Source: Candidatus Poribacteria bacterium (GTDB taxonomy: Bacteria > Poribacteria > WGA-4E > PCPOR2b). From it: 64,000 bases of DNA. Numbering within the stretch: the first letter of the stretch is position 1; the number at the start of each line of letters is the position of its first letter. The notes below the pieces were generated by a model that was not told the origin of the DNA, made no database searches, and was given only the letters and a program-made list of their open reading frames with translations. A program made the position numbers and the translations under genes. The stretch is from assembly GCA_965208325.1 (NCBI GenBank), contig OZ242326.1, forward strand, positions 480,001 to 544,000, written 5' to 3'. Below, piece after piece: positions 3,005 through 24,230 of this stretch.

Positions 3005-3033
3005 TTTTACTATTGATAAAGGAGGTGGGCGCA

Positions 3034-5226: not shown

Positions 5227-5255
5227 TTGAGGGCGTTTTGTGCGTGTGGTATAAT
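5227..5255 (+). promoter_or_regulatory. Sigma70 promoter for the giant propeller locus
   Basis: TTGAGG (5227-5232), 17 nt, TATAAT (5250-5255), with extended -10 TG at 5247-5248. Confidence 0.65.
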
Positions 5256-5352: not shown

Positions 5353-8300
5353 GTGAGTATTTCAGGAGCAAAGCTGACATTAGACTGCCGTTGGTTCTTC
5401 GTTATCTTATCGCTATTCGGATGCGCCGGTACCTCGACTGACTATATACCGGAGGTAACGAAAAAGGATCTGCCTTGGAATGCAACCGCGCTTTTGAGCG
5501 ATCGGGTTAACGCGGTCGCAGCAGATGCCGAACATGTATGGGTCGCCACTGACAAAGGGGTCAATCGTTTCAATAAGCGTGAGAACACGTGGATAGGCTA
5601 TACTGTGGAAGATGGGCTGGCGAACAACAAAGTGTCCAGCGCAGCGATTGACGGAGATGTCGTTTGGTTTGGAACAGAGTCCGGCATTTCAAAATATCAG
5701 CCAAATAACGATAAATGGACAACCTACAACCGTGACGACGGTCTGCCGAGTAACCGCGTGTTGGCAATAGGTGTGGATGGAGTTTATATTTGGTTTGGCA
5801 CGGCTAAGGGTTTGTGCCGGTATAACAAAGCCATTGACGTGTGGGCGCTTCGCACCGTTGACGATGGCGGGTTGACCAGCAACCAAATTTCCGATATTGC
5901 AGTGGAGGACGAATATGTATGGTTTGCGACGGACGAGGGAGTTTCACGGTACGATAAAAAAATTGATTCGTGGACGCAATTGACCAAAAGTGAAGGTTTG
6001 GCGGACGAGAAAGTCACTACCATCGCAATTGAGGATGAATTTACTTGGTTCGGCACGAAAAATGCCGGTGTCAGCTTATACAGCAACGCTGAGCAGGCGT
6101 TTGTAAAGACATATACGCGAAACGACTTGCTTGAAACCGACAAGATTAATTACATCTTGGTCGACGGATTGTATGTCTGGATCGGAACAGCAAATGAAGG
6201 TGTTCAAAGATTCATCAAACCCGCCAATACGTGGATTCACTACAGCACAGAAGATGGGCTGCCGTCGTCAAACATAACGGCGATGGCTGTCGATGGCAAG
6301 TATATCTGGTTCGGTACGTATGAGGACGGACTGGCGCGATTCGACAAGATTAGTGGGCTTTGGAGCGCTGTCAAGAGAGAAGAAGGCTTAGTGAGCGATG
6401 ACGTGAAATCAATTGTTGAGCAGAATGGCAAGCTTTGGATTGGCACTGCGATGGGGCTAAGTCAATTTGACTTGCAATCTAGGCAGTGGAAAACCTTCAC
6501 CAAGGGGCAAGGACTTACAACGAATTACATCACACGCGTTGTCGCCGACGATGACGTAATCTGGGTGGGCACATCCAAGGGGGTGGGGCGGCATCAGAAC
6601 GGACGGTGGAAATTCTGGCAGCGGCAACACGGACTCCCCAGTGATTTTGTCGTGGATGTAGCGGTAGATAATCAATTGGTTTGGGTCGGTACACGCAATG
6701 GTCTATGTCGATTTGACGCTAAGAACGACAGGTGGCATACCTTCCATAGTCTAAAGAATACCTGGATAAATTCCGTCGTTGTTGATGGCGGTATGTTGTG
6801 GCTTGCGACGAACCGAGGATTAGCTCAATTATCAGACGCGAATAACAGCGATCCAACGGAGGTACAAATCGATTTTTATTCATCGCATTGTGCGGATTAC
6901 GCCAACATAGTCTTGGTGGTGGACGGTGCCGTCTGGATCGGCACACGGAATGGACTTACGAGATATGGGAAACACAAGAATAGTTGGCGCCATTTTACTG
7001 TTGAAGATGGACTTCCGAATAATAACGTCAGGACGCTGGCTGTAACGGAAAACGCGCTTTGGATCGGTACGCCGAGTGGGCTAGCCACATTACCTCGAAA
7101 TGGGTGGAACGCTTATTCGGAGTTGGGCTCGAGTGGATGGCAGCATTTCAACCTGACGCAGCCCGGGGCGGAGATGGGGCACGAAAATGTCCGGGACATC
7201 TGTGTCGTGGATGGTCAGGTCTGGCTGGCTACAATCGGCGGCTTGGGTGTGTACTCTCTCCAAAACAGCACGTGGAAAGCAATTCGTGCAACGGAACGAA
7301 CGACTGTTCTGCGTCATGGCGATGTCCACCACACTGCGCTTGATGGCTATTGGGTATGGTTTCTGTCATGGCCCAACACTTCCAACGGAGGAATAGTGCG
7401 GTATGACAAACGCACAAGAACTTGGGGTCATTTCATGAAAGAAGATGTGACGCCAATCGGACGAAACGGAGAGACGCGGTATATCAGCCAAATCAATTGG
7501 ATGGAGGTAACCGCTGATAGTGTATGGTTTGCGACCGATGGCGGTGTACTGGCTTATCACAAAATTTCGGACACGTGGCGGCACTACACGACTGAAGACG
7601 GGTTAGCGGCGGATAAAACGACAACGCTGACGGTTGATGGAAATGACGTATGGGTCGTTTTGAGGGATAACCGCATCTGCCGCTATCATCGAAATACGAA
7701 CGTATGGGATACGCATCAGGTGGTTCTTAAGGAAATTGCGCCGGGAATGGAATCGTTCCGTACGCGGATTTCGGCGGACAACCGGTATGTGTGGGCGCCG
7801 GCTCAGCGGGAAGGTGTGGCGCGTTTCGACAAGGTAAACCAATCGTGGCGCAGATACACATCGGCAGACGGCTTGTCGAGTGGAACAATCGCATTCACAG
7901 CAGTGGACAATAATGATGTTTGGGCTTACGGTGGAGCTAGCGGTTTAAGCAAGTACGACGAAAACACTGATAGCTGGCGTGTCATTGACGACAAAAAGGG
8001 TTTAGCTTCTAACCGGGTTCGTGAAGTCATTTCCGGCGAGGATTTTATGTGGGTGTTGTATGACCGCAGGTCGTGGGAAGAAGACGACTATGCGCCGGCA
8101 AGTGGACTGCACCGTGCCAATCAGACGTGGCAGCGATTTCGAGGGCACACGGACAACGTCGGCAACAATTTTACAGATGTGCAGGAAATGCGTGAAGTGG
8201 TGTGGTTTGGCAGTAATAATCACGGTGTCAGCCGATACGACAAGGCATCATCCTCATGGACTGTGTTCACGGAAGAAGACGGGTTGCTTAACAACCGCGT

Positions 8301-9357
8301 GATCTATCCATCCCTGAAGATTGATGGCAATTTTCTCTGGATGGGCGGTGGCAGCGGTATCAGCCGCTACGAGCTGCGCGATGATAGCTGGACCGTCTTT
8401 ACAGGGCGTGCATCCTTGCCGTCAGATGTTGTTCGCGCCGTGGCTGTCGATTCTCGTTACGTTTATTGCGGGACCGATCGGGGCGCAACCCGGTACGATA
8501 AGCGGTATGACCGATGGCTAGAAGGACAGATTATAGGAGACCCAGTAAACGCGCTCGCTGTCGATGAAAAATTCGTATGGATCGCGAGCGCAAAAGGGGT
8601 GATTCGGTTCGACAAGTCGGCGCATTTGACGGACTATCACGCTGAAGAAAACGGTCTAGCTGATACATTTGCTAAAGTGGCTGACGCCGCGGGCCGTACA
8701 TTGTGGATCGGCACTGAGAAGGGGGTGAGCAAATACAACACGCTTTCGGATGACCCGAACGCCTGGGAGACTTTTTCTCAGGCCGATGATGTAGACATTT
8801 TGCAATTAACTCAGAAATACGCCAACAGCCTTGTATACAACCGTGTTACCAGTATAGCTGTTGGCAATCGTTACGTCTGGGTAGGTACAGAAAGAGGCGC
8901 CAGCAGCTATGACATGAAGAAAGGTACATGGGAAACGTATACGAAGCATGATGGATTGCATCATAACGAAGTGAGCAGTATTTGTATTGACGGCGATAAG
9001 GTGTGGTTTGGAGTATCCGGGGGAGTCAGCAAGTTGGATATTCGGACAGAAGAATGGAGCGCATTCTTACCATCTGACGGATTAGCAAGTGGTCACGTTA
9101 CCTGTATCGCAGCGAGCGATGATTTCGTATGGTTCGGAACGTTTGAATCGGGCGTGTCTAGACACCACAAGGCAACTGCGACGTGGAGAAACTACACGCA
9201 GAGGGATGGGCTTAGCCACGATCGCGTTTTCGACATCGCTGCGGAAGAGGATTTCATCTGGGTGGGTACTGAGCGCGGATTAAGCCGGTATGACACGATG
9301 ACGGACACCTGGACAATCTTTACGAAGCACTTTGACAGAGAAGATGATAGGAGATGA
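5353..9357 (+). CDS. Giant multi-beta-propeller lipoprotein (Reg_prop-like repeats), paralogue 1
   Basis: Lipobox SLFGC; 29 xW(V/F/I)(G/A)T..G blade motifs, many separated by 'DGLxxNxV' linkers; no TM, kinase or Y_Y_Y domain. Confidence 0.85.
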   Translation: MSISGAKLTLDCRWFFVILSLFGCAGTSTDYIPEVTKKDLPWNATALLSDRVNAVAADAEHVWVATDKGVNRFNKRENTWIGYTVEDGLANNKVSSAAIDGDVVWFGTESGISKYQPNNDKWTTYNRDDGLPSNRVLAIGVDGVYIWFGTAKGLCRYNKAIDVWALRTVDDGGLTSNQISDIAVEDEYVWFATDEGVSRYDKKIDSWTQLTKSEGLADEKVTTIAIEDEFTWFGTKNAGVSLYSNAEQAFVKTYTRNDLLETDKINYILVDGLYVWIGTANEGVQRFIKPANTWIHYSTEDGLPSSNITAMAVDGKYIWFGTYEDGLARFDKISGLWSAVKREEGLVSDDVKSIVEQNGKLWIGTAMGLSQFDLQSRQWKTFTKGQGLTTNYITRVVADDDVIWVGTSKGVGRHQNGRWKFWQRQHGLPSDFVVDVAVDNQLVWVGTRNGLCRFDAKNDRWHTFHSLKNTWINSVVVDGGMLWLATNRGLAQLSDANNSDPTEVQIDFYSSHCADYANIVLVVDGAVWIGTRNGLTRYGKHKNSWRHFTVEDGLPNNNVRTLAVTENALWIGTPSGLATLPRNGWNAYSELGSSGWQHFNLTQPGAEMGHENVRDICVVDGQVWLATIGGLGVYSLQNSTWKAIRATERTTVLRHGDVHHTALDGYWVWFLSWPNTSNGGIVRYDKRTRTWGHFMKEDVTPIGRNGETRYISQINWMEVTADSVWFATDGGVLAYHKISDTWRHYTTEDGLAADKTTTLTVDGNDVWVVLRDNRICRYHRNTNVWDTHQVVLKEIAPGMESFRTRISADNRYVWAPAQREGVARFDKVNQSWRRYTSADGLSSGTIAFTAVDNNDVWAYGGASGLSKYDENTDSWRVIDDKKGLASNRVREVISGEDFMWVLYDRRSWEEDDYAPASGLHRANQTWQRFRGHTDNVGNNFTDVQEMREVVWFGSNNHGVSRYDKASSSWTVFTEEDGLLNNRVIYPSLKIDGNFLWMGGGSGISRYELRDDSWTVFTGRASLPSDVVRAVAVDSRYVYCGTDRGATRYDKRYDRWLEGQIIGDPVNALAVDEKFVWIASAKGVIRFDKSAHLTDYHAEENGLADTFAKVADAAGRTLWIGTEKGVSKYNTLSDDPNAWETFSQADDVDILQLTQKYANSLVYNRVTSIAVGNRYVWVGTERGASSYDMKKGTWETYTKHDGLHHNEVSSICIDGDKVWFGVSGGVSKLDIRTEEWSAFLPSDGLASGHVTCIAASDDFVWFGTFESGVSRHHKATATWRNYTQRDGLSHDRVFDIAAEEDFIWVGTERGLSRYDTMTDTWTIFTKHFDREDDRR

Positions 9358-9444
9358 ATCGAACAGAGGGTGTGCAATCCAGTTGCTATGCTTTTTTCCT
9401 CAATTATTCGGACGAATGGTTAAGAAGGCGAAGGGAATTTAGTT

Positions 9445-10380
9445 ATGACCGAAACAAGTAAGGGCGGTCTCGCAATCGCTAAACACATTGCATCGTCCTA
9501 CGGTGATGACTCCGGTGTCAAGGTAATTTTCGTCGGCGGTTCAGTCTCACGCGGCTGCGCAGACGAATACTCCGATCTTGAAATCGGTATCTTCTGGGTG
9601 GAGAGGCCATCCGTTCGCATGCGGAAGGCTGCTATCAAACGTGCCGGCGGAGAACTATGGTCGTTGAACGAGTCGCAGGGGAGTGAGAAGTGGGGACTCA
9701 ACGAAATTACTGTCAATGGAAAATCCTACGCGGGTATGTTAATGGTTTCTACGATACATCTCAGTGTCACAGAAACGGAAACCCGCCTATCAGATGTTAT
9801 TGATTGTTACGATACTGACATTGAGAAGCAGGGATTGCTTTCCGCCATCCAACACGGATTTCCGTTGCACGGCACGGCGATTCTTGGGCGATGGCGGGCT
9901 AGGGCATCCGCATACCCTGATGAGCTTGCACGGCGAATGGTTCGAGAGAACCTCTGGATGGCACCGTGGTTCTGCCCTGAACAGTATATTGGCAGAGACG
10001 ACCTTATCGTCCTGTACGATCACTATATTCAGATTGCGCAGGGCATTCTCAAGGTGCTGTCGGGGCTGAACCGTGTCTATTATGCAACTCCTTATACCAA
10101 GTGGATGGATTGGCTAATTCAGCAGATGCCGATTGCCCCGCCGGACCTGTCAGTTCGGTTGAAGTCAATTTTCCATGCGGGTGCCGCATCCGCGTGGATT
10201 GAACTTAAAGCGTTGGTTTTCGAAACCTTATGCCTTGTTGAGGATCACATGGCTGATGTAGGTACGCCAGTTTCGGGCGAAAAGAATCCACCCCACGTCA
10301 ACATTGCATGGGCGAAAAGGCGGTGGATGCCTCACTCACCGTACAGCCTCATGCGGAATATCGCCGCCGCCGAATATTAG
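9445..10380 (+). CDS. Pol-beta-type nucleotidyltransferase with C-terminal helical domain (DUF4037/KNTase-like)
   Basis: VIFVGGSVSRGCADEYSDLEI motif; C-terminal YPDELARRM..LSGLNRVYY..KW segment. Confidence 0.75.
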   Translation: MTETSKGGLAIAKHIASSYGDDSGVKVIFVGGSVSRGCADEYSDLEIGIFWVERPSVRMRKAAIKRAGGELWSLNESQGSEKWGLNEITVNGKSYAGMLMVSTIHLSVTETETRLSDVIDCYDTDIEKQGLLSAIQHGFPLHGTAILGRWRARASAYPDELARRMVRENLWMAPWFCPEQYIGRDDLIVLYDHYIQIAQGILKVLSGLNRVYYATPYTKWMDWLIQQMPIAPPDLSVRLKSIFHAGAASAWIELKALVFETLCLVEDHMADVGTPVSGEKNPPHVNIAWAKRRWMPHSPYSLMRNIAAAEY

Positions 10381-10390
10381 GATTACTTAT

Positions 10391-11170
10391 ATGGCAAGCA
10401 TTTACGACTTTCCCGACGTCTACGATGCCGTGCTTCGATCGCCGCCTGATCAGATTGAAACAGAGGTTAACTCCATCCGGCAGTTACTGGGGGGGAGGCG
10501 AAGTGTAACCAAAGGCAGGATACTCGAACTTGCTTGTGGGACGTGTGCGCATGGAATACTTCTCGCTAAAAGCGGTTTTTCTGTAACAAGCATGGACATC
10601 AATCCGAACATGCTTGCCAGTGCACAGAATCGAATGGAAACTGCAGGAGTAAATATCCGACTCATTCAAGGTGATGTGGTTGATTTTAACCTAAGCGATA
10701 CAGGGTTTGACAGTGCGATTTTTATGGCAGAGACCTTCCCTCTCATTACCGCGTATGAAGATGTCAAGAGCCATTTTCAATCTGTGAGACGTCACCTCAA
10801 ACCGGGCGGACTCTACGTTATTGATATGGATAAACATTACTTCGCACCTCCAAAACGGGAAATAGGAGTGTGGAGTGAAAAAACAGTTCGCCTTGGCAAC
10901 GGACAAGTGGAGGTCTGGCTTGAGGATTATCCAGGTGATTGGGTTGAAGGAGTAAATCGCATGGCGATGCACTGCCGTATTCACCAAAATAATTCAGTCT
11001 ATGAGACAACCGACAATTGGAATATCCGGTATTATAACCCTTGGATGCTATCCCTACTGGCGCAAACATTGGAAGGATGGCGGTTAAAGGGATTCTTCTC
11101 GCGTCACAATCTGAACCAGGATATTGCCGAAGAATCACACTATTTCACAGTTTTGGAAAAAGCGTTTTAA
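10391..11170 (+). CDS. Class I SAM-dependent methyltransferase
   Basis: ILELACGT, MDINPNML, QGDVVDF, HLKPGGLYVID. Start moved to ATG 10391 to avoid overlap with the upstream gene. Confidence 0.9.
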   Translation: MASIYDFPDVYDAVLRSPPDQIETEVNSIRQLLGGRRSVTKGRILELACGTCAHGILLAKSGFSVTSMDINPNMLASAQNRMETAGVNIRLIQGDVVDFNLSDTGFDSAIFMAETFPLITAYEDVKSHFQSVRRHLKPGGLYVIDMDKHYFAPPKREIGVWSEKTVRLGNGQVEVWLEDYPGDWVEGVNRMAMHCRIHQNNSVYETTDNWNIRYYNPWMLSLLAQTLEGWRLKGFFSRHNLNQDIAEESHYFTVLEKAF

Positions 11171-11192
11171 ACCATACACCGAGAGGCGCGTG

Positions 11193-14100
11193 ATGTTTCG
11201 CCAAGTCCACAAGATTTTGGGGTTTATGATACTCCTGTCCGTGGGGAATGGTCTAGCACAAGGCTCCGAGAACGTGCAACGCAAGTTTCATGTAGCGGAA
11301 AGGCCGGCAGCAGACAACCAACTTCTTAGCGACCGCGTTCTATCACTAGCCGTCGATTCACGCTATGTGTGGGTTGGAACAGATCGGGGTTTGAGTCGGT
11401 ACGATAAACTGCGCGGCGAGTGGGACAATTTTACCGTTAAAGACGGCTTGGCGCATAACACTGTGGTTTCCATCGCTCTAGACAGCGATTTGGCGTGGAT
11501 TGGTACACGTGATGGTGTGAGTCGTTTTGACGTGCATACAAATACCTGGACACGCTACATGCCGCGTGATGGCTTGGCAGGGCGAATCATCTCCTGCGTC
11601 GCTGTGGATTCGAGATTCATCTGGTTTGGCACACCAAACGGACTGTCGCGCTACGACAAAGAGACGAATAGTTGGGCGCAGAAACGTGAAAAGGACGGAC
11701 TTGCCGGGGACGCTGTGACGCGCATTACCATTGATGAAGACTACATCTGGATTGGTACACGGAATGGGATCTCCAGATACGACAAACTCACCGATTCATG
11801 GAACAACTACGACAAAAACAGCGGTCTCGTTGACAACAGAGTGACGGCTATAGCCGCAGACGGAAATTTGGTTTGGTTCGGTACGGAAGAAAAAGGCCTC
11901 AGCCTCTATGACCGGCGGAATTCGGATTTCGTCAGGACGTATACCAAAAAAGATCAGCTGGCGAGCGATCACATTAGGGCATTAGCAGCCGATGGGACAT
12001 CACTGTGGTTAGGAACCGCCGATCGCGGTGTACAGCGATATATCTTATCTGTGAACACATGGCAGCAATACACGGTTTTAAATCCTGAAAAAACGGAAAA
12101 TACGGCGCCAACTGGGTTAATTTCCAATCACATAACGGCGATTGCACCTGACGGTAACATGGTGTGGTTCGGCACACACGAACATGGACTGGCGCGGCAT
12201 GACTTGCTCAGTGGAACGTGGAAATTTTACGGCGAAGTAAAAGCGCTGAGCGACAACGATGTTAAAGATGTGGCTGTAACGGACGAATCGGTTTGGGTAG
12301 CGACGCGATTTGGATTGAATCAAGCATCGTATCCGGAAGTTGCGGAGTTTTCGACTGGATGTGATTGGCGAACATTTCGTAAAGCGGACGGTTTGGCGGA
12401 TAACTATATCACTTGTGTTTTGCAAGTGGAAGAAGACGTTTGGGTCGGTACGCCGAGTGGTTTGGGGTTGCGGCATGGAGACGAGGGTGAGTGGGTGTTT
12501 TTTTCGACGAAAGATGGACTTCCGCATGACTTCGTGACCTGCCTGGCGTGGCAACCGGCGGCCAGAGACACCGAGAAGCAGAATTCATGGGAAAGTCCGG
12601 GGAATGTGAAGGGGAAGACTGACGGCAGCACGCAATCAGGTTTTGATTCGCGTCTATGGATTGGGACAAAAGCCGGACTTTCGACATACGAACCGCAAAG
12701 CCGCCAATGGAATACGCATCCGTCGCCATTGCAAATTTCAGGTCGTGTTAGCGACATTGTATTCGGCGGTGATTTCGTCTGGATCGCCACGGAGTATGGA
12801 CTTGTTTATTATGATGGGACCTCAGGTGAATCAGGAAAACTGACCGTCAAGGACGGTTTACCTGCAGACATGATTAACACGGCTGCTATAGGCAATCGGT
12901 CTATATGGGTTGGCACACTGTCGGGCTTATCACAGTTGAGCAAATCATCATTCAAAACTCGTTCGCACGCGTCCGCCACGCACTTACCGCGTTCAAACGT
13001 CAGGGCGGTTGCCGTTGATGGCAAAGACGTCTGGGTTGGAACTCCGTCTGGTTTGTATTGCGTTGCTGGCGATGCATTTACACATTACACACGCGAGAGC
13101 ACCGATGGCGGGCTTGTTAGCGATAATGTTAAAGCTATTGAGATCAACGGCGGCAAAGTTTGGGTCGGTACCACTGCGGGCTTTAGTGTCTTGGATAAGC
13201 ATGGAAAGAAATGGTCGAAACATGCAGCTGCGGCAACCACAGAAGTGCTGCGATCCAATTGGGTAAGCAAGCTCACCGAGGATGGAACTGACATTTGGTT
13301 CGGCAATTGGAATGACTCTGCAGATGGCGCCATTGTAAAGTACGATAGACGAACAGATACCTTTCAATTCTTCGACAAAGATGACCTACCATTGAAACCC
13401 GCCGGCCGACCGATTACGCACATCCACGTACTAACCGTGGGGGAAAATGGGGTTTGGGCCGGCACTAACGGAGGGCTGTTACGCTACGACAAAACGAAGG
13501 ATTCATGGCGTCATTACACCGTGTACGACGGTCTTCCGAACAATGAAGTCTGGAGTATCATCTTCGATTCGCCCTACGTATGGACAGCACATATTGGCGG
13601 CGTGGTTAGTCGATATTCGATGGCAATGGATGAATGGACATCTTTCGAAATTTCGCCAAGCGAAACATGGAGCGGAGTCGGGTCCATGGCAGTTGACCCG
13701 CAATATGTTTGGGTCACGACGATGTGGGATGGGCTCAAGCGATACGAAAAATCAACGGGTACATGGACAAATGTCACGGAAGTACACGGTTTGGGTGATA
13801 ACGAAGCGAACGATCTACTTGTTGACGGTGAGCATGTCTGGGTCACGGGTTGGGGGGATGCCAGCCGATACAATCGGCGAACCGGGGAATGGAATGTCTT
13901 CAGCCGGTGGCGCGTGCTCTCCGGTCCGAATATTTACCTCAGTAGAGGTCTGAACGGAGTTTGGCTTGCATACCCATGGTTAAGTTGGGGCGATGCAATC
14001 GCCTCAAAATTTCACAATAAATCCGGTTCATGGACAACATTGAAAGTGCCGGAAATTGAAGGGGGCTATTTTGGACGTACCATGCAGGTTGTGGAATCCA

Positions 14101-15332
14101 TTGACAGTGTTTGGTTCGCGGTGGAATGGCTGGGATTGGCTCGATATAATAAAGCCTCAAACGACTGGACATTCTTCGATGAAAAAAATGGTCTTGCAAG
14201 CGGCGAGCTGCATGAGCACTCGATAGTCGTCGATGAAAACTATGTCTGGGTGGGAACGGCTGGTGGATTGGGTCGGTATGACATTGAGAGTGAGGTCTGG
14301 ACGACTTTCACGCAGTCGCCATTAACGCCGATTGGACGTGCTCCAAAAGTGTACGCCATTGCGGCTGAAGCGCGTTTTGTGTGGTTGGGAACCGCAAACG
14401 GCCTGCATCGGTATGACAAAGATACAGGCCGATGGTACTCCCCGCGACCAATGGGAAGACACGGTGAAATGGTGAATAATCCAAGCATCGCAAGTATTGC
14501 AATTGACGAAAAATATGTTTGGCTAGGTACTAACGAAGGTGTCTTGCGGTATGATAAGGCCGGAGACTACTGGGAAGTGTACACAGATGAAAACGGTCTT
14601 CCATCCAACGCTATCCGAGATGTGGCAGTCAAAAGCTACGAAGTGTGGATTGCGACGAATCATGGTGCCGCGGTATTCAACCGACTCTCAGACGATCCAA
14701 ACACTTGGGAGCCGCACACACAGGAGCTGGAAATCAAAGGGATGCAAGATGTCAAAAAGTACGCACAGACGCTGTTGAGCAATGATGTCCGGTGCATCGG
14801 CGTCGGCGCTAGGTCTATATGGTTCGGTACGGACAAAGGCGCCTGCCGCTACGATAGAGAGAAAAAAACATGGAAACCCTTAATTGCAAATATTGCATCT
14901 TCATCACAAATTGCCGGATTCTCAGAGTCTCACGCCCATCACACACCGAATATTGCCGACATCAGCGCAATCGCCGTTGATGAAGATTTTGTCTGGTTCG
15001 GCACCGAGCACGGCGCGATGAAGTATCACCTAGAATCCGGGAAATTCGACACGTTCACTCAATCGGACGGTTTAGCGGGAAATATCGTTACGTGTATCGC
15101 TCTCAACGACGAGGAAATCTGGTTCGGATCGGCGAACGCGGGGGTCGCACGTATGGATAAAGCCACAGGTAAATGGCGCGTCTTTGACACAAGCCATGGT
15201 CTGCTCCACAATCGAGTGGAAGCCATCGCGTTTGACGGGGACCAGCGGTGGTTCGGCACAGAGCTTGGACTGTGTCGGTATGATCCAAAAACCGAAACAT
15301 GGACAAGTTATGCGGAGGGTTTCAATCCTTGA
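11193..15332 (+). CDS. Giant secreted multi-beta-propeller protein, paralogue 2
   Basis: Sec signal MFRQVHKILGFMILLSVGNGLA|Q after GAGAGG RBS; 29 blade motifs collinear with paralogue 1. Confidence 0.85.
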   Translation: MFRQVHKILGFMILLSVGNGLAQGSENVQRKFHVAERPAADNQLLSDRVLSLAVDSRYVWVGTDRGLSRYDKLRGEWDNFTVKDGLAHNTVVSIALDSDLAWIGTRDGVSRFDVHTNTWTRYMPRDGLAGRIISCVAVDSRFIWFGTPNGLSRYDKETNSWAQKREKDGLAGDAVTRITIDEDYIWIGTRNGISRYDKLTDSWNNYDKNSGLVDNRVTAIAADGNLVWFGTEEKGLSLYDRRNSDFVRTYTKKDQLASDHIRALAADGTSLWLGTADRGVQRYILSVNTWQQYTVLNPEKTENTAPTGLISNHITAIAPDGNMVWFGTHEHGLARHDLLSGTWKFYGEVKALSDNDVKDVAVTDESVWVATRFGLNQASYPEVAEFSTGCDWRTFRKADGLADNYITCVLQVEEDVWVGTPSGLGLRHGDEGEWVFFSTKDGLPHDFVTCLAWQPAARDTEKQNSWESPGNVKGKTDGSTQSGFDSRLWIGTKAGLSTYEPQSRQWNTHPSPLQISGRVSDIVFGGDFVWIATEYGLVYYDGTSGESGKLTVKDGLPADMINTAAIGNRSIWVGTLSGLSQLSKSSFKTRSHASATHLPRSNVRAVAVDGKDVWVGTPSGLYCVAGDAFTHYTRESTDGGLVSDNVKAIEINGGKVWVGTTAGFSVLDKHGKKWSKHAAAATTEVLRSNWVSKLTEDGTDIWFGNWNDSADGAIVKYDRRTDTFQFFDKDDLPLKPAGRPITHIHVLTVGENGVWAGTNGGLLRYDKTKDSWRHYTVYDGLPNNEVWSIIFDSPYVWTAHIGGVVSRYSMAMDEWTSFEISPSETWSGVGSMAVDPQYVWVTTMWDGLKRYEKSTGTWTNVTEVHGLGDNEANDLLVDGEHVWVTGWGDASRYNRRTGEWNVFSRWRVLSGPNIYLSRGLNGVWLAYPWLSWGDAIASKFHNKSGSWTTLKVPEIEGGYFGRTMQVVESIDSVWFAVEWLGLARYNKASNDWTFFDEKNGLASGELHEHSIVVDENYVWVGTAGGLGRYDIESEVWTTFTQSPLTPIGRAPKVYAIAAEARFVWLGTANGLHRYDKDTGRWYSPRPMGRHGEMVNNPSIASIAIDEKYVWLGTNEGVLRYDKAGDYWEVYTDENGLPSNAIRDVAVKSYEVWIATNHGAAVFNRLSDDPNTWEPHTQELEIKGMQDVKKYAQTLLSNDVRCIGVGARSIWFGTDKGACRYDREKKTWKPLIANIASSSQIAGFSESHAHHTPNIADISAIAVDEDFVWFGTEHGAMKYHLESGKFDTFTQSDGLAGNIVTCIALNDEEIWFGSANAGVARMDKATGKWRVFDTSHGLLHNRVEAIAFDGDQRWFGTELGLCRYDPKTETWTSYAEGFNP

Positions 15333-15365
15333 CGGTCCAAGGATTTCCAGCAGAGAAATGACAAT

Positions 15366-18300
15366 ATGAAGAAACAGGTGAAATGCACCATACAGATTTT
15401 GCATTACTTATTGCTAATCTCCCTGATCGGGAGCGGTTTGGCTCAGCTTAACTCACAGGACGAAAAATCGGCTGTTCTTGAGGAATCGGCCCTTGCCCAA
15501 CTGGCATCAGAAAATACGTTGGTGAGCGATAACATCCGCTGCGTTTCAACTTCAGCCGACTACGTTTGGGTAGCAACAGACCGAGGCGTCAGCATCTACC
15601 ATAAGGCGGATAGCCGCTGGACGAAGTTAGATTGGGAAGACGGTTTAGTCTCGGACGATGTCACAGCGTTGTCCGCCGATCGAGAGTTTCTCTGGGTAGG
15701 TACAACTCTGGGAATCAGCCTATACAACATAGAGAATGGCAGTTTGACGAAGTTTCAACGGCGCGACGGTTTAGCAAGCAACAAAGTCACCGCAATCGCT
15801 GTGGACGGAAATTACACCTGGGTCGGTACGGAGTCCGGTATTTCGCGTTATGATAAGACAACGGGTACATGGGCATTACAACGTGAGAAAGACAAAGATC
15901 GGTTTAACTCCATTACCGCAATTGCTGTGGAATCGGAGTATGTTTGGTTTGGTACAGAAAATGGACTACGGCGATACGATAAGTTAAAAGACGCATGGAA
16001 CGCATACACGAAAGAGGACGGGCTGGTGGAAAACCATGTCCGCTGTATTGCATTAAGCCCTGATTCTGTTTGGGTGGGAACAGAGAAATCGGGTGTGAGC
16101 AAATACAGTGTAGCCAACCAATCCTTCACCGAAAGCTATACGCGGACAGATCTATTGGAAAGCGATTTCATCAGGGCGATTGCCGTTGACGGCGACAATG
16201 TCTGGTTTGGTTCCGCGGACCGCGGTATTCGTCGGTTTATTTCAACGGTGAATACTTGGTTTAAGTACACGACTGGCAAGGGTTTAGTTAGCGACCACAT
16301 TTCTTGGCTGCATGTTGATGGCGGTCACATTTGGATCGGCACCTACGAGTTCGGTTTGGGTCAATTCGATAAAACGAACGATGGCTGGACATGGTATTCA
16401 AAGCGAGATTCGCTGGTGTCCAATCAAATCAAATCCGTCGTATCAACTGAGAAGGCACTCTGGATTGGTACGAATAAAGGCTTAAGTCGCTATGCACCTC
16501 AAAAAAAGTCGTGGAAAACGTTCACGAAGGCAGATGGTTTAGTAACAAATTATATTACGCATCTGACGAAGGGTGTGGATAATAGCACGATATGGGTCGG
16601 GACGCCACTGGGGTTAGGGGCACTAGTCGGAAAACAGTGGAGATTCTATACGGAAAGGCATGGACTGGCAAATGATTACGTTACCGGTATCAGTGCGGTT
16701 CCCGGTAAGATTTGGGTTGCGACCAAGGGGGGAGTGAGTTCTTTTTCCGTAACCGCAAACCGGGAAACTGGGATTGAACAGACTAGCGCATCAACAATTG
16801 GGCAAGACTCACCGCACGTTTCATCCGGCGTCACCCTTTATGATTCACAAACGTATCTTACAAGCAAGTGGGTAACCGCCGTGCTGGTGATTGGGCAAAA
16901 TGTGTGGGCGGGCACAACAGATGGGCTGTACCGGATAAACGATGAAACAGGTGAATTTGAGCCCGTTCTGGAAGTTAGGAATTATGTTAACGCACTTTCC
17001 TCTAGTGTTGATAGGCAATTGCTGGTTGGCACGCGAAACGGCTTGTGGATCATAGGTGGCGAAAAGTCATCACATATCACGGAGGGATTGCCGAACTTGA
17101 ATGTCAGGAGCGTCGCGGAAGACAACGGTACCATCTGGGTAGGAACTCCGGGCGGTGTTGCGCGTCTGAATGACGGAAACGTTAATCAGGTTATTACGAT
17201 GCAGGCTGCCGGTTTGCTTCACGATAATGTACGGAGCATTGTGGTCTCGGATCAGCAGGTTTATTTCGGTACTGCCGCCGGTCTCGCTATCTATAACGTA
17301 GAGAAAAATCAGTGGGAACAATATAAACCGTATTACGACACAGAAATCCTTAAAGAGGAGCAAATTCGTTGGATAGAGTTGGATGAGCACAATCTATGGG
17401 CTCTTAATTGGTCGTCTTCTCCGAATGGCGCAATATTAAAATTCGATCGGCGTACTGAGACTTGGATCGAATACACGAAATACGCTCTGCCTCTCTCTTC
17501 AAATGTCCCGTTTATCACCGAAATTCACCGCCTTGCGGTAGGTGAAGAGGATGTCTGGTTTGCCGCTGGAGACGGCGGCGTACTTCGGTACAATAAAGCA
17601 TCGGATACATGGACCCACATCACTATGCCCACTGGGATACCGGGGCACCAAGCTATGCTAATCGAGCTTGACGGACCGAATGGCGTTTGGGTTTCATTCC
17701 AAGGCGGCATAGCAGGGAAGTACGATACGCGAACGCAGCAATGGGAGACCGTGAAGGTGACAGATTCTGGTGCAGGAACGCGCATTGAGGACATTGCTTG
17801 CACAAACGACTACGTCTGGTTCGCTACAAATAGCGCAGGGGTCAGAAGATATGAACAAGCCACGCAAACCTGGAAATCGTACACAGAAGCGCAAGGTATG
17901 GCGTCGCGGTTTACTCCGTGGATTGACGCGGACGGCGAAGGCGTGTGGACTAGCGGCGGTACTTCTTGGTCATGGGTCAGTGACCGCGGGGTGCAAGGAG
18001 TGAGTTTCTATCGCCCAAAAGAAAACAGTTGGACATTTTTTGACCGGAGAAACGGTTTGCGTGCAGAGGCGACCGGATACGGACAGGTTGGCAAAGATTA
18101 TGTTTGGTGCTTTGGAGGGGAAGGAATCAACAGATACCATAAAACAAGGAAATCTTGGACTTCCTTCAATTCGAGCGATGGTTTGATAGTCCATAATGTC
18201 CGTGCAGTCGCAAGAGACAGTGACGGTTTCTGGGTAGGTTCGGATGAAAGCGGTATCTGGAAGTATGCGCAAGCCTCTGGTGCATGGACAGTGTTCACTG

Positions 18301-19448
18301 TTGAGGACGGTTTGATTGATGGCAGCGTCCAACCTTACGCGCTCAAAGTTGGTCCGGAACATGTGTGGGTTGGAACGTCACAAGGATTAAGCCGATACGA
18401 TAAGAGGAGGAGGACATGGATTTCGTTAATGAAGCCGGCCACATTGGCGGACCGCCGAGCCGTCTCTGTTGCTGCTGATAGCCAATTTGTATGGGTCGGA
18501 ACACACCGCGGCTTGAGTCGATACGACAAAAGGTACGACAGATGGAGACATTTTAGGACTGAAGAGCAAGAAAACGAGGATAATGGAGACGATGAGGACG
18601 ATAAAACTAAGCAAGAAAAAAGGAACCAACTGGTGGACAACAGTGTCGTAGATCTATCTGTCGGTGTACGGTACGTTTGGATCGCGACTGAAGGCGGGGT
18701 GGGCCGGTACGACAAAATCGCTAATCGTTTTGAATCGTATACCCACGAGAACCAACTGCCGAGCGTCGATATCCGAGCGGTTGCAGAGAATGAAAGCGAT
18801 GTGTGGATTGGGACGAAAAACGGTATTGGCAAGCACAGTATTCTTTCGGAAGATCGAAATGCCTGGGAAACATTTAACACTGCGATTGAAATCCTGCCAA
18901 CAGTGAAAGGTAAGTACGCTAAGAGCTTGGAAAATGATGACGTGCGATGCCTTGCAGTCGATGATTTTCGAGTTTGGGTCGGAACCAAAACGGGCGTGTC
19001 ACTCTATGAAATTGAAAAAGGGACGTGGAGTACCTTTACTCAAAAGGACGGGTTGGCAAGTGACGAGGTAAGTTGTATTACTTTTGACGAGGGGCGCGTA
19101 TGGTTTGGAAGCGGGCGCGGTGTGACAGTTTATGATACGGAAAATGATACTTGGAAGGTTCTTACGGAAGCGGATGGGTTGGGTTCAAATCTAATCACGT
19201 CAATTGCAAATCACCGGAGCCAAATCTGGTTTGGCACATTCGATAGTGGAGCCACTGTGTATGACAAAATCACCGGAAAATTCACGACCTTCACCAAAGC
19301 TGATGGCCTTCCTCATAATGGCATCCTGTCGATCGCGGCTGACGGTAACTGTCTCTGGTTCGGCACACACGGCGGGTTGACCCGATACGATTCTTTAGCT
19401 GGGACGTGGACAGTCTATACTGAGCGATTTGACTATGATGGGCTGTAG
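15366..19448 (+). CDS. Giant secreted multi-beta-propeller protein, paralogue 3
   Basis: Sec signal ending LIGSGLA|Q; 29 blade motifs collinear with paralogues 1 and 2; acidic insertion EEQENEDNGDDEDD. Confidence 0.85.
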   Translation: MKKQVKCTIQILHYLLLISLIGSGLAQLNSQDEKSAVLEESALAQLASENTLVSDNIRCVSTSADYVWVATDRGVSIYHKADSRWTKLDWEDGLVSDDVTALSADREFLWVGTTLGISLYNIENGSLTKFQRRDGLASNKVTAIAVDGNYTWVGTESGISRYDKTTGTWALQREKDKDRFNSITAIAVESEYVWFGTENGLRRYDKLKDAWNAYTKEDGLVENHVRCIALSPDSVWVGTEKSGVSKYSVANQSFTESYTRTDLLESDFIRAIAVDGDNVWFGSADRGIRRFISTVNTWFKYTTGKGLVSDHISWLHVDGGHIWIGTYEFGLGQFDKTNDGWTWYSKRDSLVSNQIKSVVSTEKALWIGTNKGLSRYAPQKKSWKTFTKADGLVTNYITHLTKGVDNSTIWVGTPLGLGALVGKQWRFYTERHGLANDYVTGISAVPGKIWVATKGGVSSFSVTANRETGIEQTSASTIGQDSPHVSSGVTLYDSQTYLTSKWVTAVLVIGQNVWAGTTDGLYRINDETGEFEPVLEVRNYVNALSSSVDRQLLVGTRNGLWIIGGEKSSHITEGLPNLNVRSVAEDNGTIWVGTPGGVARLNDGNVNQVITMQAAGLLHDNVRSIVVSDQQVYFGTAAGLAIYNVEKNQWEQYKPYYDTEILKEEQIRWIELDEHNLWALNWSSSPNGAILKFDRRTETWIEYTKYALPLSSNVPFITEIHRLAVGEEDVWFAAGDGGVLRYNKASDTWTHITMPTGIPGHQAMLIELDGPNGVWVSFQGGIAGKYDTRTQQWETVKVTDSGAGTRIEDIACTNDYVWFATNSAGVRRYEQATQTWKSYTEAQGMASRFTPWIDADGEGVWTSGGTSWSWVSDRGVQGVSFYRPKENSWTFFDRRNGLRAEATGYGQVGKDYVWCFGGEGINRYHKTRKSWTSFNSSDGLIVHNVRAVARDSDGFWVGSDESGIWKYAQASGAWTVFTVEDGLIDGSVQPYALKVGPEHVWVGTSQGLSRYDKRRRTWISLMKPATLADRRAVSVAADSQFVWVGTHRGLSRYDKRYDRWRHFRTEEQENEDNGDDEDDKTKQEKRNQLVDNSVVDLSVGVRYVWIATEGGVGRYDKIANRFESYTHENQLPSVDIRAVAENESDVWIGTKNGIGKHSILSEDRNAWETFNTAIEILPTVKGKYAKSLENDDVRCLAVDDFRVWVGTKTGVSLYEIEKGTWSTFTQKDGLASDEVSCITFDEGRVWFGSGRGVTVYDTENDTWKVLTEADGLGSNLITSIANHRSQIWFGTFDSGATVYDKITGKFTTFTKADGLPHNGILSIAADGNCLWFGTHGGLTRYDSLAGTWTVYTERFDYDGL

Positions 19449-19485
19449 AGCTTAATACACAATACACATTGAGGAAGTTAATCAG

Positions 19486-21453
19486 ATGAGAATATGGAAT
19501 TCAAATGCGAAGATTTCAAAGTTTATCTTCTACAGCATGATGTTGTTTCTACTGTTCGGGACTACTGTCAACCGGGCGGCGGCGGAAGATGTGTACAGTC
19601 TATTCGGGAAACTATTCCTTTCAGGACGCGTAGAATATGATTTCACGAATAAACGAGACTTTCTCGCGGACACAGAAGAGGATGCCGTCCGGCAAAACGA
19701 GTTTGATTTTGACCGAGTGTTTCGGCGCGGCTTCCACAGTGTCATGATTATTGAGGAAACTGCTGGCAACGTCAAGAACATCTTGAGTTTGGGAGAAGTG
19801 CCAACCACCTTTACGAAATTCACCTTTGATCAGATTGACCTCTCGGGTGTACGATGGGATGTCCGATCAGAGCGCACCGATTGGACGATATTGATGGTAC
19901 CCGGTTTACTCAACCCAGTAATTGGCCAAGAAAATGTGCATGGATCGGGAATTGGTATACGGGAAGTAACGAAGTTTGGGAAGTCTAAGTTTGGAGCTTC
20001 GTGGTACTTCCGCGATACGCCTGTATGGGCATTGGATTTGGAGACTAACTTTGCAAACTATGGTTTGAAGGCGGAAATTGCGGCGACTCCGAAAAGTGCA
20101 TTGAGGAAAAACTTCAGTTCTCGATTTGACGCGACGACGACGGTGTTTAAGGCGTTCCGAACTGTTGGTGACACGATTTTCCAGGGTGAGGCCTTTCGCG
20201 TCGGTCCGCGATTCGATGCCTCTCGCTCTGTTGGGGATAACGACGATCAGGACCGATATAGCGATAACACAACGTTAGATCCGCCCTCATTGATTATTCC
20301 GGGCGATTTGGACAAGAATAACAACGGAACGTTCGATTACGAGGATGATATTCTACTGTTTGACGTTGATGAAGATTTTCTTGACGAAAGGGATCGGAAT
20401 AACAACGGAATACGAGATGCGGAAGAGAACGATAGAGACCCAAATTACGAATTTGACGCTGGCCTGCGGGGGATGCGTCTTTTTATGAAACGCAAAACAA
20501 TGCGCGGAAACACGTCCACTGACCTTGAAATCGGAATGCAATTCGAAAAAGATCTAATGGAAAGGGAATTTCAGCGCCCTTCAACAGCAACAAAGGCGTT
20601 CACCAATCTCGTCTACAAAGACAATCTCTCTCAGAATTCTGCTCTGGTGCTTGAGAACGAACTGAAGTTGGTGAGAGACCACATCCCAGATGAGACCTGG
20701 TACTTTGCGGGATTCTTAAGCGAGACAGAGTGGCAACTCTACCGGGCTAATCCCAACGTGCAGAAATCTGAGGCGGAAGGCGGGTTGGCGTTTTTTAATG
20801 TAGATGGCGGCGTTGAGGTAGAGAAGCGGCGAATAGATCCGCTCTTGATGCAGGACGACGCAATCAATACAGCCAAAGTCACTTGGGAATATTCGGGTAT
20901 AAAGCACATGGTCACGACTGGACGCGTCAAACTGCGATATAATTTGGATTTCAACCTTGACAACGAGCATTACGAGGTCGGCATCATCAAAACAAACTAC
21001 CGAATGCGGCCATCCAAATCGCTTGAGATTACACCGATGTTCAAATACACGGTTCGCAACGGCTTTCAGATGGCAGAAGACCGTTTGGAACTTCTCCCAT
21101 TGGCCGGGACAATCGAGGGTGAAGAGATTACACGCAATTTGCGGCTGAATGTAATTGAAGCTGCAGATGTTCGTGACATGGCGGCAGCCTTTATTTTGAA
21201 AACCGTTTATCAGTTCACGAAGACTATCAAGATCACGGGAGGCGGGCAGGTGTTACTCTTTAACGATATGCTTGAAGATGGAAACGATTTTGTTCGCCAA
21301 GCCATTCTAGCTGAAATGGAAAAGAGCTTTGTAGCTTACGAAAAGGAAATGTTTTTGCACATAGGTGCCAAATACATCGACCAACGCGCAAACGCGGACT
21401 TGAACGACGATAATTACATGGAAACATTCGTGCGTGTATTCGGGAAGTTCTAG
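19486..21453 (+). CDS. Probable outer-membrane beta-barrel protein with Asp-rich Ca-binding-like loop
   Basis: Signal peptide (..AAA|ED); many alternating amphipathic strands; C-terminal ETFVRVFGKF ending in Phe; DKNNNGTFD and DRNNNGIRD motifs. Confidence 0.65.
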   Translation: MRIWNSNAKISKFIFYSMMLFLLFGTTVNRAAAEDVYSLFGKLFLSGRVEYDFTNKRDFLADTEEDAVRQNEFDFDRVFRRGFHSVMIIEETAGNVKNILSLGEVPTTFTKFTFDQIDLSGVRWDVRSERTDWTILMVPGLLNPVIGQENVHGSGIGIREVTKFGKSKFGASWYFRDTPVWALDLETNFANYGLKAEIAATPKSALRKNFSSRFDATTTVFKAFRTVGDTIFQGEAFRVGPRFDASRSVGDNDDQDRYSDNTTLDPPSLIIPGDLDKNNNGTFDYEDDILLFDVDEDFLDERDRNNNGIRDAEENDRDPNYEFDAGLRGMRLFMKRKTMRGNTSTDLEIGMQFEKDLMEREFQRPSTATKAFTNLVYKDNLSQNSALVLENELKLVRDHIPDETWYFAGFLSETEWQLYRANPNVQKSEAEGGLAFFNVDGGVEVEKRRIDPLLMQDDAINTAKVTWEYSGIKHMVTTGRVKLRYNLDFNLDNEHYEVGIIKTNYRMRPSKSLEITPMFKYTVRNGFQMAEDRLELLPLAGTIEGEEITRNLRLNVIEAADVRDMAAAFILKTVYQFTKTIKITGGGQVLLFNDMLEDGNDFVRQAILAEMEKSFVAYEKEMFLHIGAKYIDQRANADLNDDNYMETFVRVFGKF

Positions 21454-21573
21454 TTTGTGTTGGCGTTTCAGTTTCTATAGTCGACTCATTTTGCAATTAC
21501 CCATTCTAGTTGCAATTTGGATTCGTCTGTGCCGCTGCAAAGGCATTGAATGTTTTTATATTTTAAATCTCAC

Positions 21574-21680: not shown

Positions 21681-23318
21681 TCAATGGAGATGTCCATGAT
21701 GTTGATGTGCCCCACCGGGTTCCGGTTTAGGTTCTTCCTCTACCTCCGTGACTAATGATTCTGTTGTCAACAGGAGTCCCGCTACGCTCGCCGCATTTTG
21801 AAGTGCCGACCTGACTACTTTGGTGGGGTCGACGATGCCTGCCTGGAGCAAATCTTCGAATTCGCCGGTTTGTGCGTTGAATCCATGCCCCGCTTCACCA
21901 TCTTTGACTTTGGCAACGACAACGGAACTCTCCTCACCCGCGTTTTCAGTAATCCTCCGGATTGGTGCCTCCAAGGCTTTACGGACGATGTTTACGCCGA
22001 CCGCCTGATCGCCCTCAAGTTGGCTATTCGACAGCACGGAGCTTGCTCGCAACAGCGCAAGACCTCCTCCCGGAACAATTCCTTCCTCGACAGCCGCGCG
22101 CGATGCAGATAAAGCATCTTCAAATCGAGTTTTTTTCTCTTTCATCTCCGTTTCAGTCGCCGCACCGACCCGAATCACAGCAACACCTCCCGCGAGTTTC
22201 GCTAGACGTTCTTCCAGTTTTTCACGATCGTAGTCGGAAGTAGTTTCCTCAATTTGCCGACGAATTTGGCCAATTCGATTCTCAATTTCCGATTTCATTC
22301 CTGCGCCTTCGACGACCGTGGTATCGTCTTTGGTAACGATTACCCGCTTTGCGCTGCCAAGCATACCGATCACCAGATTTTCCAATTTAATGCCTATGTC
22401 TTCCGAGATAACCTGTCCGTTGGTAAGAACACCTAAGTCCCCGAGCATCGCTTTACGCCTGTCACCGAAACCCGGTGCTTTTACAGCGACACATTGACAA
22501 ATGCCGCGCAGTTTATTCACGACCAACGCGGCTAAAGCCTCCCCTTCAACGTCTTCTGCGATGATGAGGAGAGAACGTCCAAGTTGGACAACTTTCTCCA
22601 AGATTGGGACAAGACTAGCCATCGAGCTAATCTTTCCATCATTAATCAAAATCAGTGGATCTTCTAATTCCGTAACGAGTTGTTCGTCATTGGTCACAAA
22701 GTGGGGGGAGAGATACCCGCGGTCAAATTGCATCCCATCAACATAATCAACGTTTGTGTCAGAACTCTTTCCTTCTTCAACCGTGATAACGCCGTCCTCG
22801 CCCACTTTTTCCATTGCATCTGCGATAAGTCTTCCTATTCCGGAAGCATTCGCCCGGTCATTGGCTGCAATGGACGCGACTTGTGCAATTTCACCGTGTG
22901 TGCTTATGGCTGTACTCTGTTTTTTTAGCGCTTCGACAACAGCGGCCACAGTTTTCTCAATGCCAATCTTCAATTGCATCGAATCCATGCCAGCGGCAAC
23001 GCTCTTTAGCCCCTCATGGATGATTTCTTGAGCCAACACCGTAGCGGTTGTTGTGCCGTCGCCTGCCACGTCGTTTGTTTTAGTGGCGACCGATTTTAAC
23101 AATTGTGCGCCCATGTTTTCGTATTGATCGGGAAGTTCAATTTCCTTAGCAACAGTAACGCCGTCACTCGTAATTACCGGTGATCCAAAGGACTTTTGAA
23201 GAATCACATTACGGCCGCGGGGACCAAGTGTTACTGTTACCGCCTGCGCGAGTGTGTCAGCACCCCGCTGGAGGGCTTCTCGGGCTTCTACATCAAAAAT
23301 CAGCTGCTTTGCTGCCAT
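21681..23318 (-). CDS. groEL: Chaperonin GroEL with His-rich C-terminus
   Basis: [65 protein letters not shown]; ends HQHHGHLH. Confidence 0.99.
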
Positions 23319-23363
23319 ATTTTCTCTCCTGTAGCATCGGTATTTACCTGAAAGGTGGGGTTG

Positions 23364-23390
23364 TTAGCACTCTTACTTAGTGAGTGCTAG
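23364..23390 (-). promoter_or_regulatory. CIRCE element (HrcA operator)
   Basis: TTAGCACTC-N9-GAGTGCTAG, one mismatch from TTAGCACTC-N9-GAGTGCTAA, lying between the promoter and the groEL start. Confidence 0.95.
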
Positions 23391-23401
23391 CCGAACACCG
23401 A

Positions 23402-23431
23402 ATTATACATCACGCCACCGCAAAAAGTCAA
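23402..23431 (-). promoter_or_regulatory. Sigma70 promoter of groEL
   Basis: Minus strand TTGACT, 18 nt, TATAAT, immediately upstream of the CIRCE. Confidence 0.75.
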
Positions 23432-23481
23432 CCTGAATCCTCATTTTGGGTTCGGCGAATGCAGATTTGCGACGTGCCGTA

Positions 23482-24219: not shown

Positions 24220-24230
24220 TGTGTGCGTTT

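Follow-up and report, generated by a model that had tools for sequence, protein, structure and literature searches.

A new outer-membrane beta-barrel and giant four-propeller lipoproteins as a candidate accessory envelope module of Poribacteria

What joins three giant exported propeller proteins to the gene of a beta-barrel in the genome of a poribacterium? Poribacteria are uncultured bacteria that have been studied for carbohydrate breakdown in sponges, and the locus in question lies in a 64,000-nucleotide stretch of one of their genomes (hereafter the window; Candidatus Poribacteria bacterium, assembly GCA_965208325.1, contig OZ242326.1, positions 480,001 to 544,000), which is part of one 4.7-Mb contig. 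Here the propeller genes P1 (5353-9357, + strand), P2 (about 11190-15332, +) and P3 (15366-19448, +) are followed by a barrel gene (19486-21453, +). An earlier note on this sequence had held that the barrel and the propellers are functionally linked and that they belong to no described system. We find that presence and absence of barrel and propeller genes coincide across the phylum, and because of this the two probably form one undescribed envelope machine; co-occurrence, adjacency and a successful complex prediction all bear out the proposed link. Both the Reg_prop domain and the general principle of a barrel served by its own lipoprotein are already known. In agreement with the earlier note's view that this is no described system, full-text literature searches, which returned the openings of abstracts, gave no paper on the barrel family, on a 29-blade lipoprotein lacking a signalling output or on their pairing.

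The linkage was followed in 176 Poribacteria species genomes, with the barrel counted as present at E ≤ 1e-100 and a four-propeller orthologue at E ≤ 1e-60. The barrel was found in 140 genomes and the propeller orthologue in 139; both occurred together in 139, neither occurred in 36, one genome had the barrel only and none the propeller protein only. The single barrel-only genome (G145) is 81% complete and divided into 1030 contigs, and the 36 genomes below the barrel threshold gave best matches of only E 1e-6 to 1e-27, making the distribution bimodal. These counts speak against the possibility, raised with the original proposal, that the genes might not be co-conserved. Sixteen genera contain genomes that lack both genes. 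Five of these genera are mixed (g9, 2/10; g12, 1/3; g13, 2/3; g17, 13/40; g18, 4/65), and among the genomes without the pair are the single-contig genomes G031, G090, G101 and G163. Because the absences span so many genera, mixed ones among them, and also four genomes in one contig each, the two genes have been lost jointly on many occasions, and the module is dispensable.

Co-occurrence is accompanied by adjacency, defined as location on the same contig and strand with a gap below 2 kb and counted in genomes with listed positions for both genes. The two lie next to each other in 90 of the 97 single-copy genomes: 22 of 25 in g17, 56 of 60 in g18, all nine in other single-copy genera of the order and all three in g24, which belongs to another family and in which the barrel precedes the propeller gene. 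In the more distant families f5, f6, f7, f9, f10 and f11 the genes lie on different contigs or are not adjacent within short flanks. A scan of 17 flanking open reading frames (ORFs) gave no other recurring neighbour of the barrel. The conserved unit is therefore a barrel and a propeller lipoprotein.

The three propeller proteins (1334, 1380 and 1360 residues for P1, P2 and P3) are collinear and pairwise 36-38% identical. The Pfam Reg_prop model matches them at 127.8, 109.8 and 118.8 bits respectively, against a cut-off of 20.4, and the only other Pfam match is to the related model of the PorZ N-terminal propeller. Landmark peptides that the earlier note had described as shared and in register are all present (12/12) at corresponding positions of P1, P2 and P3, namely 250/247/254, 673/707/682, 1131/1166/1160 and 1155/1190/1183. 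A repeat profile built from the trio finds 28 repeats in each protein at a domain E ≤ 0.01, and 28, 30 and 31 raw hits when fragments are included. For the C-terminal half of P1 (residues 648-1334), an AlphaFold model based on an alignment of 22 family members has a pLDDT (the predicted confidence of the model) of 84.8 and 60 strands, enough in our reading for 15 four-stranded blades. On superposition, the final ~300 residues match closed 7-bladed propellers (Z ~30, root-mean-square deviation 2.2 A, 261 residues aligned); propeller 4 would thus take seven of the 15 blades, leaving eight for propeller 3. The N-terminal half contributes 14 repeats by the sequence profile. Together, the 8+7 of the C-terminal model and the 14 of the N-terminal profile support a total of 29 blades divided as 7+7+8+7, which is the count and likely partition previously suggested. 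Conservation across the 22 family members is higher in the outer propellers 1 and 4 (0.70 and 0.66) than in propellers 2 and 3 (0.53 and 0.59).

The nearest structural relatives of this fold are signalling sensors. In Foldseek the C-terminal half of P1 is matched best by sensor domains from Bacteroides hybrid two-component systems (HTCS), namely BT4663 (PDB 4a2l and 4a2m), BT3049 (3v9f) and BT4673 (3ott and 3va6), with E values of about 1e-23 to 1e-20, and alignments to such domains reach Z 29.3 over 543 residues and Z 28.8 over 542. The ligand of the BT4663 sensor is heparin or heparan sulphate. Because of these matches, each propeller protein is read as two tandem double-propeller modules without an output. 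The Reg_prop repeats and the tandem double propeller are shared with the HTCS sensors, but P1-P3 carry two such modules in tandem, and the Y_Y_Y domain, membrane helix, kinase, receiver and DNA-binding output of the sensors have no counterpart in them; here there is instead a lipoprotein N-terminus and an outer-membrane barrel as partner. In line with the earlier note, which had seen no Y_Y_Y domain, membrane helix or kinase, P1-P3 contain no Y_Y_Y, kinase, receiver or DNA-binding domain at Pfam E ≤ 0.01, and beyond residue 45 no 19-residue stretch is more hydrophobic than the signal peptide, so that no membrane helix is apparent. Nor do their homologues appear to be fused to kinases, an outcome that would have spoken for a known signalling system: the 120 top-ranking relatives listed, which are 34-99% identical and 813-1448 residues long, carry no kinase, receiver or Y_Y_Y family.

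The partner is a 655-residue predicted outer-membrane beta-barrel. Its hydrophobic N-terminal leader ends AAA/ED, the protein contains no cysteine, and its C-terminus is GKF, with a final phenylalanine. The AlphaFold model (pLDDT 61.7) has about 24-26 strands and leaves residues 24-122 and 247-322 unmodelled; the protein thus has the signal peptide, the all-beta barrel and the C-terminal aromatic residue of classical outer-membrane barrels, at a model confidence of only 61.7. Both structure searches returned membrane beta-barrels exclusively among the matches listed. In Foldseek these were led by SlpA, FadL and TonB-dependent receptors, and in VIA-align, where 50 matches were listed at Z 10.3-14.1, by PgaA, MtrB and a SusC-like chain, and no single barrel family stands out in either. 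A beta-barrel product, as first proposed, is hence what the models predict. The second unmodelled stretch coincides with an Asp-rich insertion (residues ~247-322) that is almost invariant and, judged by eye, looks calcium-binding. For 19 family members, no Pfam match was obtained even at E ≤ 10 beyond SlpA_C (E 0.068, in 2 of the 19), and there was no NCBIfam match and, again at E ≤ 10 with the 19-member profile, no PDB sequence match. By sequence, the barrel family has neither a described counterpart nor a database model.

Across Poribacteria the barrel is 55-94% identical, and a library of 1.84 billion cluster representatives yielded only two near-full-length relatives (62% and 34% identity); the remaining matches share residues about 175-410 only and belong to hypothetical proteins of 700-1100 residues from Latescibacterota, Gemmatimonadota and Spirochaetota. 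Some individual loci deserve mention here. In G035, the closest relative (locus L016, 14971-16965), an in-frame TAG splits the barrel gene into ORFs of 414 and 250 residues at 94% identity, reflecting either a recent pseudogene or a sequencing error. The genome of the window itself (G000) also encodes a 1095-residue barrel paralogue of the wider family (C1:2830083-2833367, - strand; locus L002), which shares the Asp-rich region, and the small ORFs after it resemble ExbD/TolR by eye. In the Latescibacterota loci L039 and L057 barrels of the wider family stand in operons with a large protein of tetratricopeptide repeats (TPRs), another barrel that SlpA_C matches faintly, and F5/8 type C (discoidin) proteins whose C-termini are FlgD_ig/CHU_C-type domains.

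How the trio arose can be seen from its distribution. The order P1-P2-P3-barrel occurs in all four g1, three of four g7 and all three g9 genomes examined (10/11, in three genera). A maximum-likelihood tree of 23 family members, from a quick IQ-TREE search, resolves four clades, one for each of P1, P2 and P3, with sequences of g1, g7 and g9 in every one of these three (SH-aLRT 100), and one for all single-copy genes (SH-aLRT 97). Because each paralogue forms its own clade across the three genera, all three have been kept as distinct genes. Ancestrally, and still most often, the barrel is accompanied by a single propeller lipoprotein; in three genera a lineage-specific expansion has produced the trio. 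The recurrence of three propellers with a barrel, which the earlier note had suggested looking for, is thus real within these genera, but the single propeller with a barrel is the commoner arrangement. The g7 genomes carry, besides the trio next to the barrel, an unlinked gene of the single-copy type. In one of them (G043, locus L117) the trio has been lost, a propeller remnant of 118 residues adjoins the barrel and only the unlinked single-copy-type gene is kept. G040 has one strong propeller match only. The genome of the window encodes a fourth, very divergent four-propeller protein as a 1455-residue ORF (C1:1834879-1839243, - strand; locus L115) with 25 repeat hits, no lipobox by eye and a long branch in the family tree.

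Membrane anchoring follows the same history. P1 of the window begins with a lipoprotein signal (LSLFGC), whereas the ordinary signal peptides of P2 and P3 end in GLAQG and GLAQL and contain no lipobox cysteine. Among relatives, judged by eye and without a predictor, all 13 of 13 single-copy orthologues have a lipobox cysteine, as do 8 of 9 P1, 5 of 9 P2 and 5 of 9 P3 sequences. By this distribution the family is ancestrally lipid-anchored. Since the triplication, one paralogue has nearly always kept the anchor and the other two can lose it, a pattern that would be compatible with P2 and P3 being held by a partner.

A direct contact between the two proteins is predicted. The earlier note had suggested multimer modelling of the trio with the barrel, and this was taken up in part: when barrel residues 27-655 were modelled together with propeller 1 of P1, three runs scored 0.68, 0.68 and 0.70, against 0.00 for the best of three controls, and the pair passed. 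The partner has a pLDDT of 84, and the runs share at least 70% of their contacts. For orientation, the pass mark is reached by 116 of 157 solved complexes and by 2 of 215 mismatched pairs, counts that apply here only in rough terms, since our own alignments were used for the prediction. As close paralogues can also pass, the test is silent on which of P1-P3 binds. The barrel is contacted at hairpin turns of 2-7 residues (189-191, 228-229, 335-339, 380-386, 470-476 and 506-514). In classical outer-membrane proteins the short hairpin turns face the periplasm, and since the contacts fall at such turns, docking in the model is at the short-turn rim, probably on the periplasmic face. A lid on the cell surface, as had been imagined for these proteins, does not agree with this placement. 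The Asp-rich segment, as placed by the strand list and not by coordinates, would then be a surface loop.

Our preferred explanation, to which we give about an even chance, is that the locus encodes an accessory, Poribacteria-specific outer-membrane module in which a new barrel is combined with output-less, glycan-sensor-like lipoproteins docked below it. The large barrel, with its ~24-26 predicted strands, and the giant lipoproteins would act as one module. Each lipoprotein would comprise two tandem double-propeller ligand-binding units (7+7+8+7) with no signalling output and would be anchored in the outer membrane, its first propeller docking on the short-turn rim of the barrel, probably from the periplasm. 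Propellers 2 and 3, which vary more, would bind a polymeric ligand, most likely a glycan, which would then pass through the barrel or be handed to it. In this lineage a single ancestral lipoprotein gene would have given rise to three old paralogues, of which P1 keeps the lipid anchor; P2 and P3, having lost it here, would probably ride on P1 or on the barrel. The gene anatomy, the folds, the joint occurrence and proximity of the genes in the phylum and the distribution of lipoboxes are observed, contact between barrel and propeller is predicted, and the glycan ligand, the role and direction of transport and a P1-P2-P3 heteromer are inferences. The further proposals of the earlier note, a dedicated porin for uptake and roles in adhesion or host interaction, are conjectural. 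A bolder version, in which a phylum-specific machine of 29-blade lipoproteins below the new barrel, a heterotrimer here, captures or threads host- or environment-derived polymers and is lost as a unit, seems to us possible but doubtful.

Several points should be weighed against this explanation. The barrel model is of middling confidence (pLDDT 61.7, with residues 24-122 and 247-322 unmodelled), and the docking face was assigned by the rule on short turns and not from coordinates. The predicted interface is no more conserved than the rest of either protein, neither on the barrel (0.73 vs 0.71, p=0.39) nor on the propeller (0.52 vs 0.52, p=0.46). The presence thresholds were partly set after the bimodal barrel E-values had been seen, and related genomes are not independent samples, hence no p-value is attached to the co-occurrence counts. 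No glycoside hydrolase, ABC transporter or synthase gene is conserved beside the pair in the loci examined. Finally, a Reg_prop neighbour occurs in none of 79 loci of the wider barrel family (Latescibacterota, Gemmatimonadota and others), so the partnership is confined to Poribacteria; in five such non-Poribacteria genomes, Reg_prop matches extended over no more than about 120-360 of the 1334 residues of P1, and in none of the five were the matches collinear over four propellers.

Of the other ways to explain the pair, one would make it an element of envelope architecture without transport, namely a tether between outer membrane and cell wall or an S-layer-like scaffold, with the barrel as anchor and the propellers as lattice. 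The very strong conservation of the barrel noted above would fit such a role, as would its top Foldseek matches, which are Deinococcus SlpA barrels (7zgx and 8ae1, E about 1e-6), the faint SlpA_C matches in 2 of 19 members (E 0.068) and the near-invariant Asp-rich segment with its calcium-binding look. However, 36 of the 176 genomes live without the pair, neither Pfam nor NCBIfam finds an SLH, OmpA or peptidoglycan-binding domain, and the TM-scores with SlpA are ~0.2 and do not set it apart from other barrels. The structural resemblance on which this reading rests is weak, and we consider it unlikely.

It also should be considered that the pair might assist a type IX-like secretion system (T9SS) as an accessory arm, in which the propellers would serve like PorZ in surface glycan or lipopolysaccharide binding and cargo attachment, and the barrel would be an anchor like PorQ or PorV. 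In PorZ and PorQ, too, an outer-membrane barrel is paired with a propeller protein built of this kind of repeat; the NCBIfam PorZ model matches P1 at 104.5 and P2 at 109.4 bits, and the PorZ structure (5m11) is a Foldseek match to the C-terminal half of P1 at E 2e-18. The genome of the window, moreover, has ~50 Por_Secre_tail domains together with SprA-like, PorU-like and PorV/PorQ-like genes, and barrels of the wider family in Latescibacterota adjoin proteins with T9SS-type C-terminal domains. Yet the PorZ scores are far under the 260-bit equivalog cut-off and P3 has no match at all. PorZ has two propellers rather than four, and P1-P3, being lipoproteins or plain signal-peptide proteins, carry no C-terminal sorting domain of the Por_Secre_tail or CHU_C kind; the Por_Secre_tail hits of this genome fall in other genes. 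The PorQ and PorV models (NF033711 and NF033710) match other ORFs of 338-391 residues and none at the barrel (genome 499486-501450), and no T9SS gene adjoins the pair in the loci examined. Por_Secre_tail domains are found in 176 of 176 genomes, including all 36 without the pair; because those 36 retain them, the pair is not required for the T9SS-type system. It is unlikely that type IX secretion needs these genes, and the wider idea of an accessory arm is in our view quite improbable. The T9SS-like repertoire of this genome (G000:C1) comprises a 2196-residue SprA-like ORF, two PorU-like ORFs of ~2100 residues and several PorV/PorQ-like barrels, for example at 3091331-3095149 (-), 4022499-4027856 (+), 3715233-3719957 (-) and 164490-165335 (+), all below curated cut-offs. 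Within the window, a T9SS-type C-terminal sorting domain at 43708-43986 (-; genome 523708-523986) closes a 1141-residue ORF.

Alternatively, the pair could be the terminus of polysaccharide export, the barrel being the exit and the propellers a periplasmic scaffold guiding the nascent polymer, as the TPRs do in PgaA, PelB, BcsC and AlgK/AlgE. The top VIA-align match is indeed the PgaA barrel (4y25_A, Z 14.1), with PelBC (Z 13.0) and BcsC (Z 10.3) also listed; the propeller is predicted to dock where the barrel has its short turns, probably in the periplasm, and the propellers are of a glycan-sensor type. An outer-membrane barrel combined with a large periplasmic repeat scaffold is common to PgaA, PelB/PelC, BcsC and the module described here. 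In those systems, however, the scaffold consists of TPRs fused to the barrel, whereas here it consists of propellers encoded by a separate gene with no linked synthase, and no synthase or glycosyltransferase gene is conserved beside the pair. Large barrels all score alike in this search (Z 10-14), so that here too the structural resemblance is weak, and we regard an export terminus as decidedly improbable. That the genes are merely co-regulated neighbours, the propellers being free periplasmic sensors or binding proteins with unlinked partners and the barrel an unrelated porin, is hard to hold in view of the co-occurrence table (139 both, 36 neither, 1 and 0 single) and very improbable, for although Reg_prop double propellers are classically sensor domains and an extracytoplasmic function (ECF)-type sigma factor gene lies upstream (3013-4401), the barrel-propeller complex prediction passed, none of the best 120 listed relatives has a kinase, receiver or Y_Y_Y domain, and the trio of the g9 genomes G022, G023 and G027 has no such sigma gene upstream of it in the loci examined, the comparison in the remaining trio loci covering less than about 2.3 kb ahead of P1.

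The remainder of the locus is of lesser consequence for the module of barrel and propeller lipoproteins. Between 5353 and 21453 the + strand holds six genes, all co-oriented; P2 and P3 are separated by 33 nt, and P3 and the barrel gene by 37 nt, just as the earlier note had measured. Its gene row of three paralogues and then a barrel holds as far as it goes, but two genes between P1 and P2 went unmentioned: a DUF4037 gene (9445-10380, +) and a gene for a class I S-adenosylmethionine (SAM)-dependent methyltransferase (about 10388-11170, +; Pfam Methyltransf_25, 67 bits), both outside the conserved module. This cassette is found in 4 of 4 g1 genomes and is absent from the g7 and g9 clusters; it is a genus-specific insertion, unrelated to the conserved module. 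The DUF4037 gene, which is nucleotidyltransferase-like, seems truncated in two g1 genomes, where 221 and 122 of 311 residues were matched. The extended -10 promoter described upstream of P1 does exist as a consensus match (5227-5255, +; TTGAGG, 17 nt, TATAAT, with TG before the -10), but such sites are no commoner here than in shuffled sequence (25 observed against 21.7 +/- 4.7) and the match is therefore no evidence for a promoter. The ECF-type sigma factor gene (3013-4401, +) ends ~950 nt upstream of P1; regions 2 and 4 lie within residues 1-185 of its product, followed by a C-terminal extension of ~270 residues without a family match. Downstream of the barrel, GroEL (812 bits) and L-rhamnose isomerase (581 bits) are encoded on the - strand (21681-25445), ordinary genes unrelated to the module. 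Rfam gave no family match anywhere in the window. The four read records listed for positions 11501-21500 all come from one study, and none of them is recorded as RNA.

Among described envelope systems, the closest in logic are SusC/SusD, BtuB/BtuG and BamA/BamB, which are barrels with a dedicated lipoprotein, BtuG and BamB being propeller lipoproteins. In these the barrel gene adjoins the gene of its lipoprotein partner, and likewise here, where binding is predicted. Matches to the barrel in VIA-align include a SusC-like chain (5t3r_D, Z 13.6) and BtuB (8blw_A, Z 10.9); TonB-dependent transporters, which are 22-strand barrels with a plug, align with the model at Z 10.6-11.8 over 335-361 residues, like other barrels, the N-terminal ~100 residues being unmodelled. 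Unlike SusC and BtuB, however, the barrel has no Plug or TonB-dependent-receptor domain by its sequence. The lipoprotein is also five to ten times larger, and its predicted docking at short turns is probably periplasmic and not at the surface.

The pair amounts to an unannotated module present in about four fifths of Poribacteria species. No larger stand-alone form of a glycan-sensor fold is known than its propeller proteins, in which a sensor domain of signalling systems has been re-used as an envelope lipoprotein without an output. Shared gain and loss, with 139 carriers against 36 non-carriers, gives a handle on its role. The module thereby offers a testable candidate for the short list of outer-membrane barrels that have a dedicated propeller lipoprotein.

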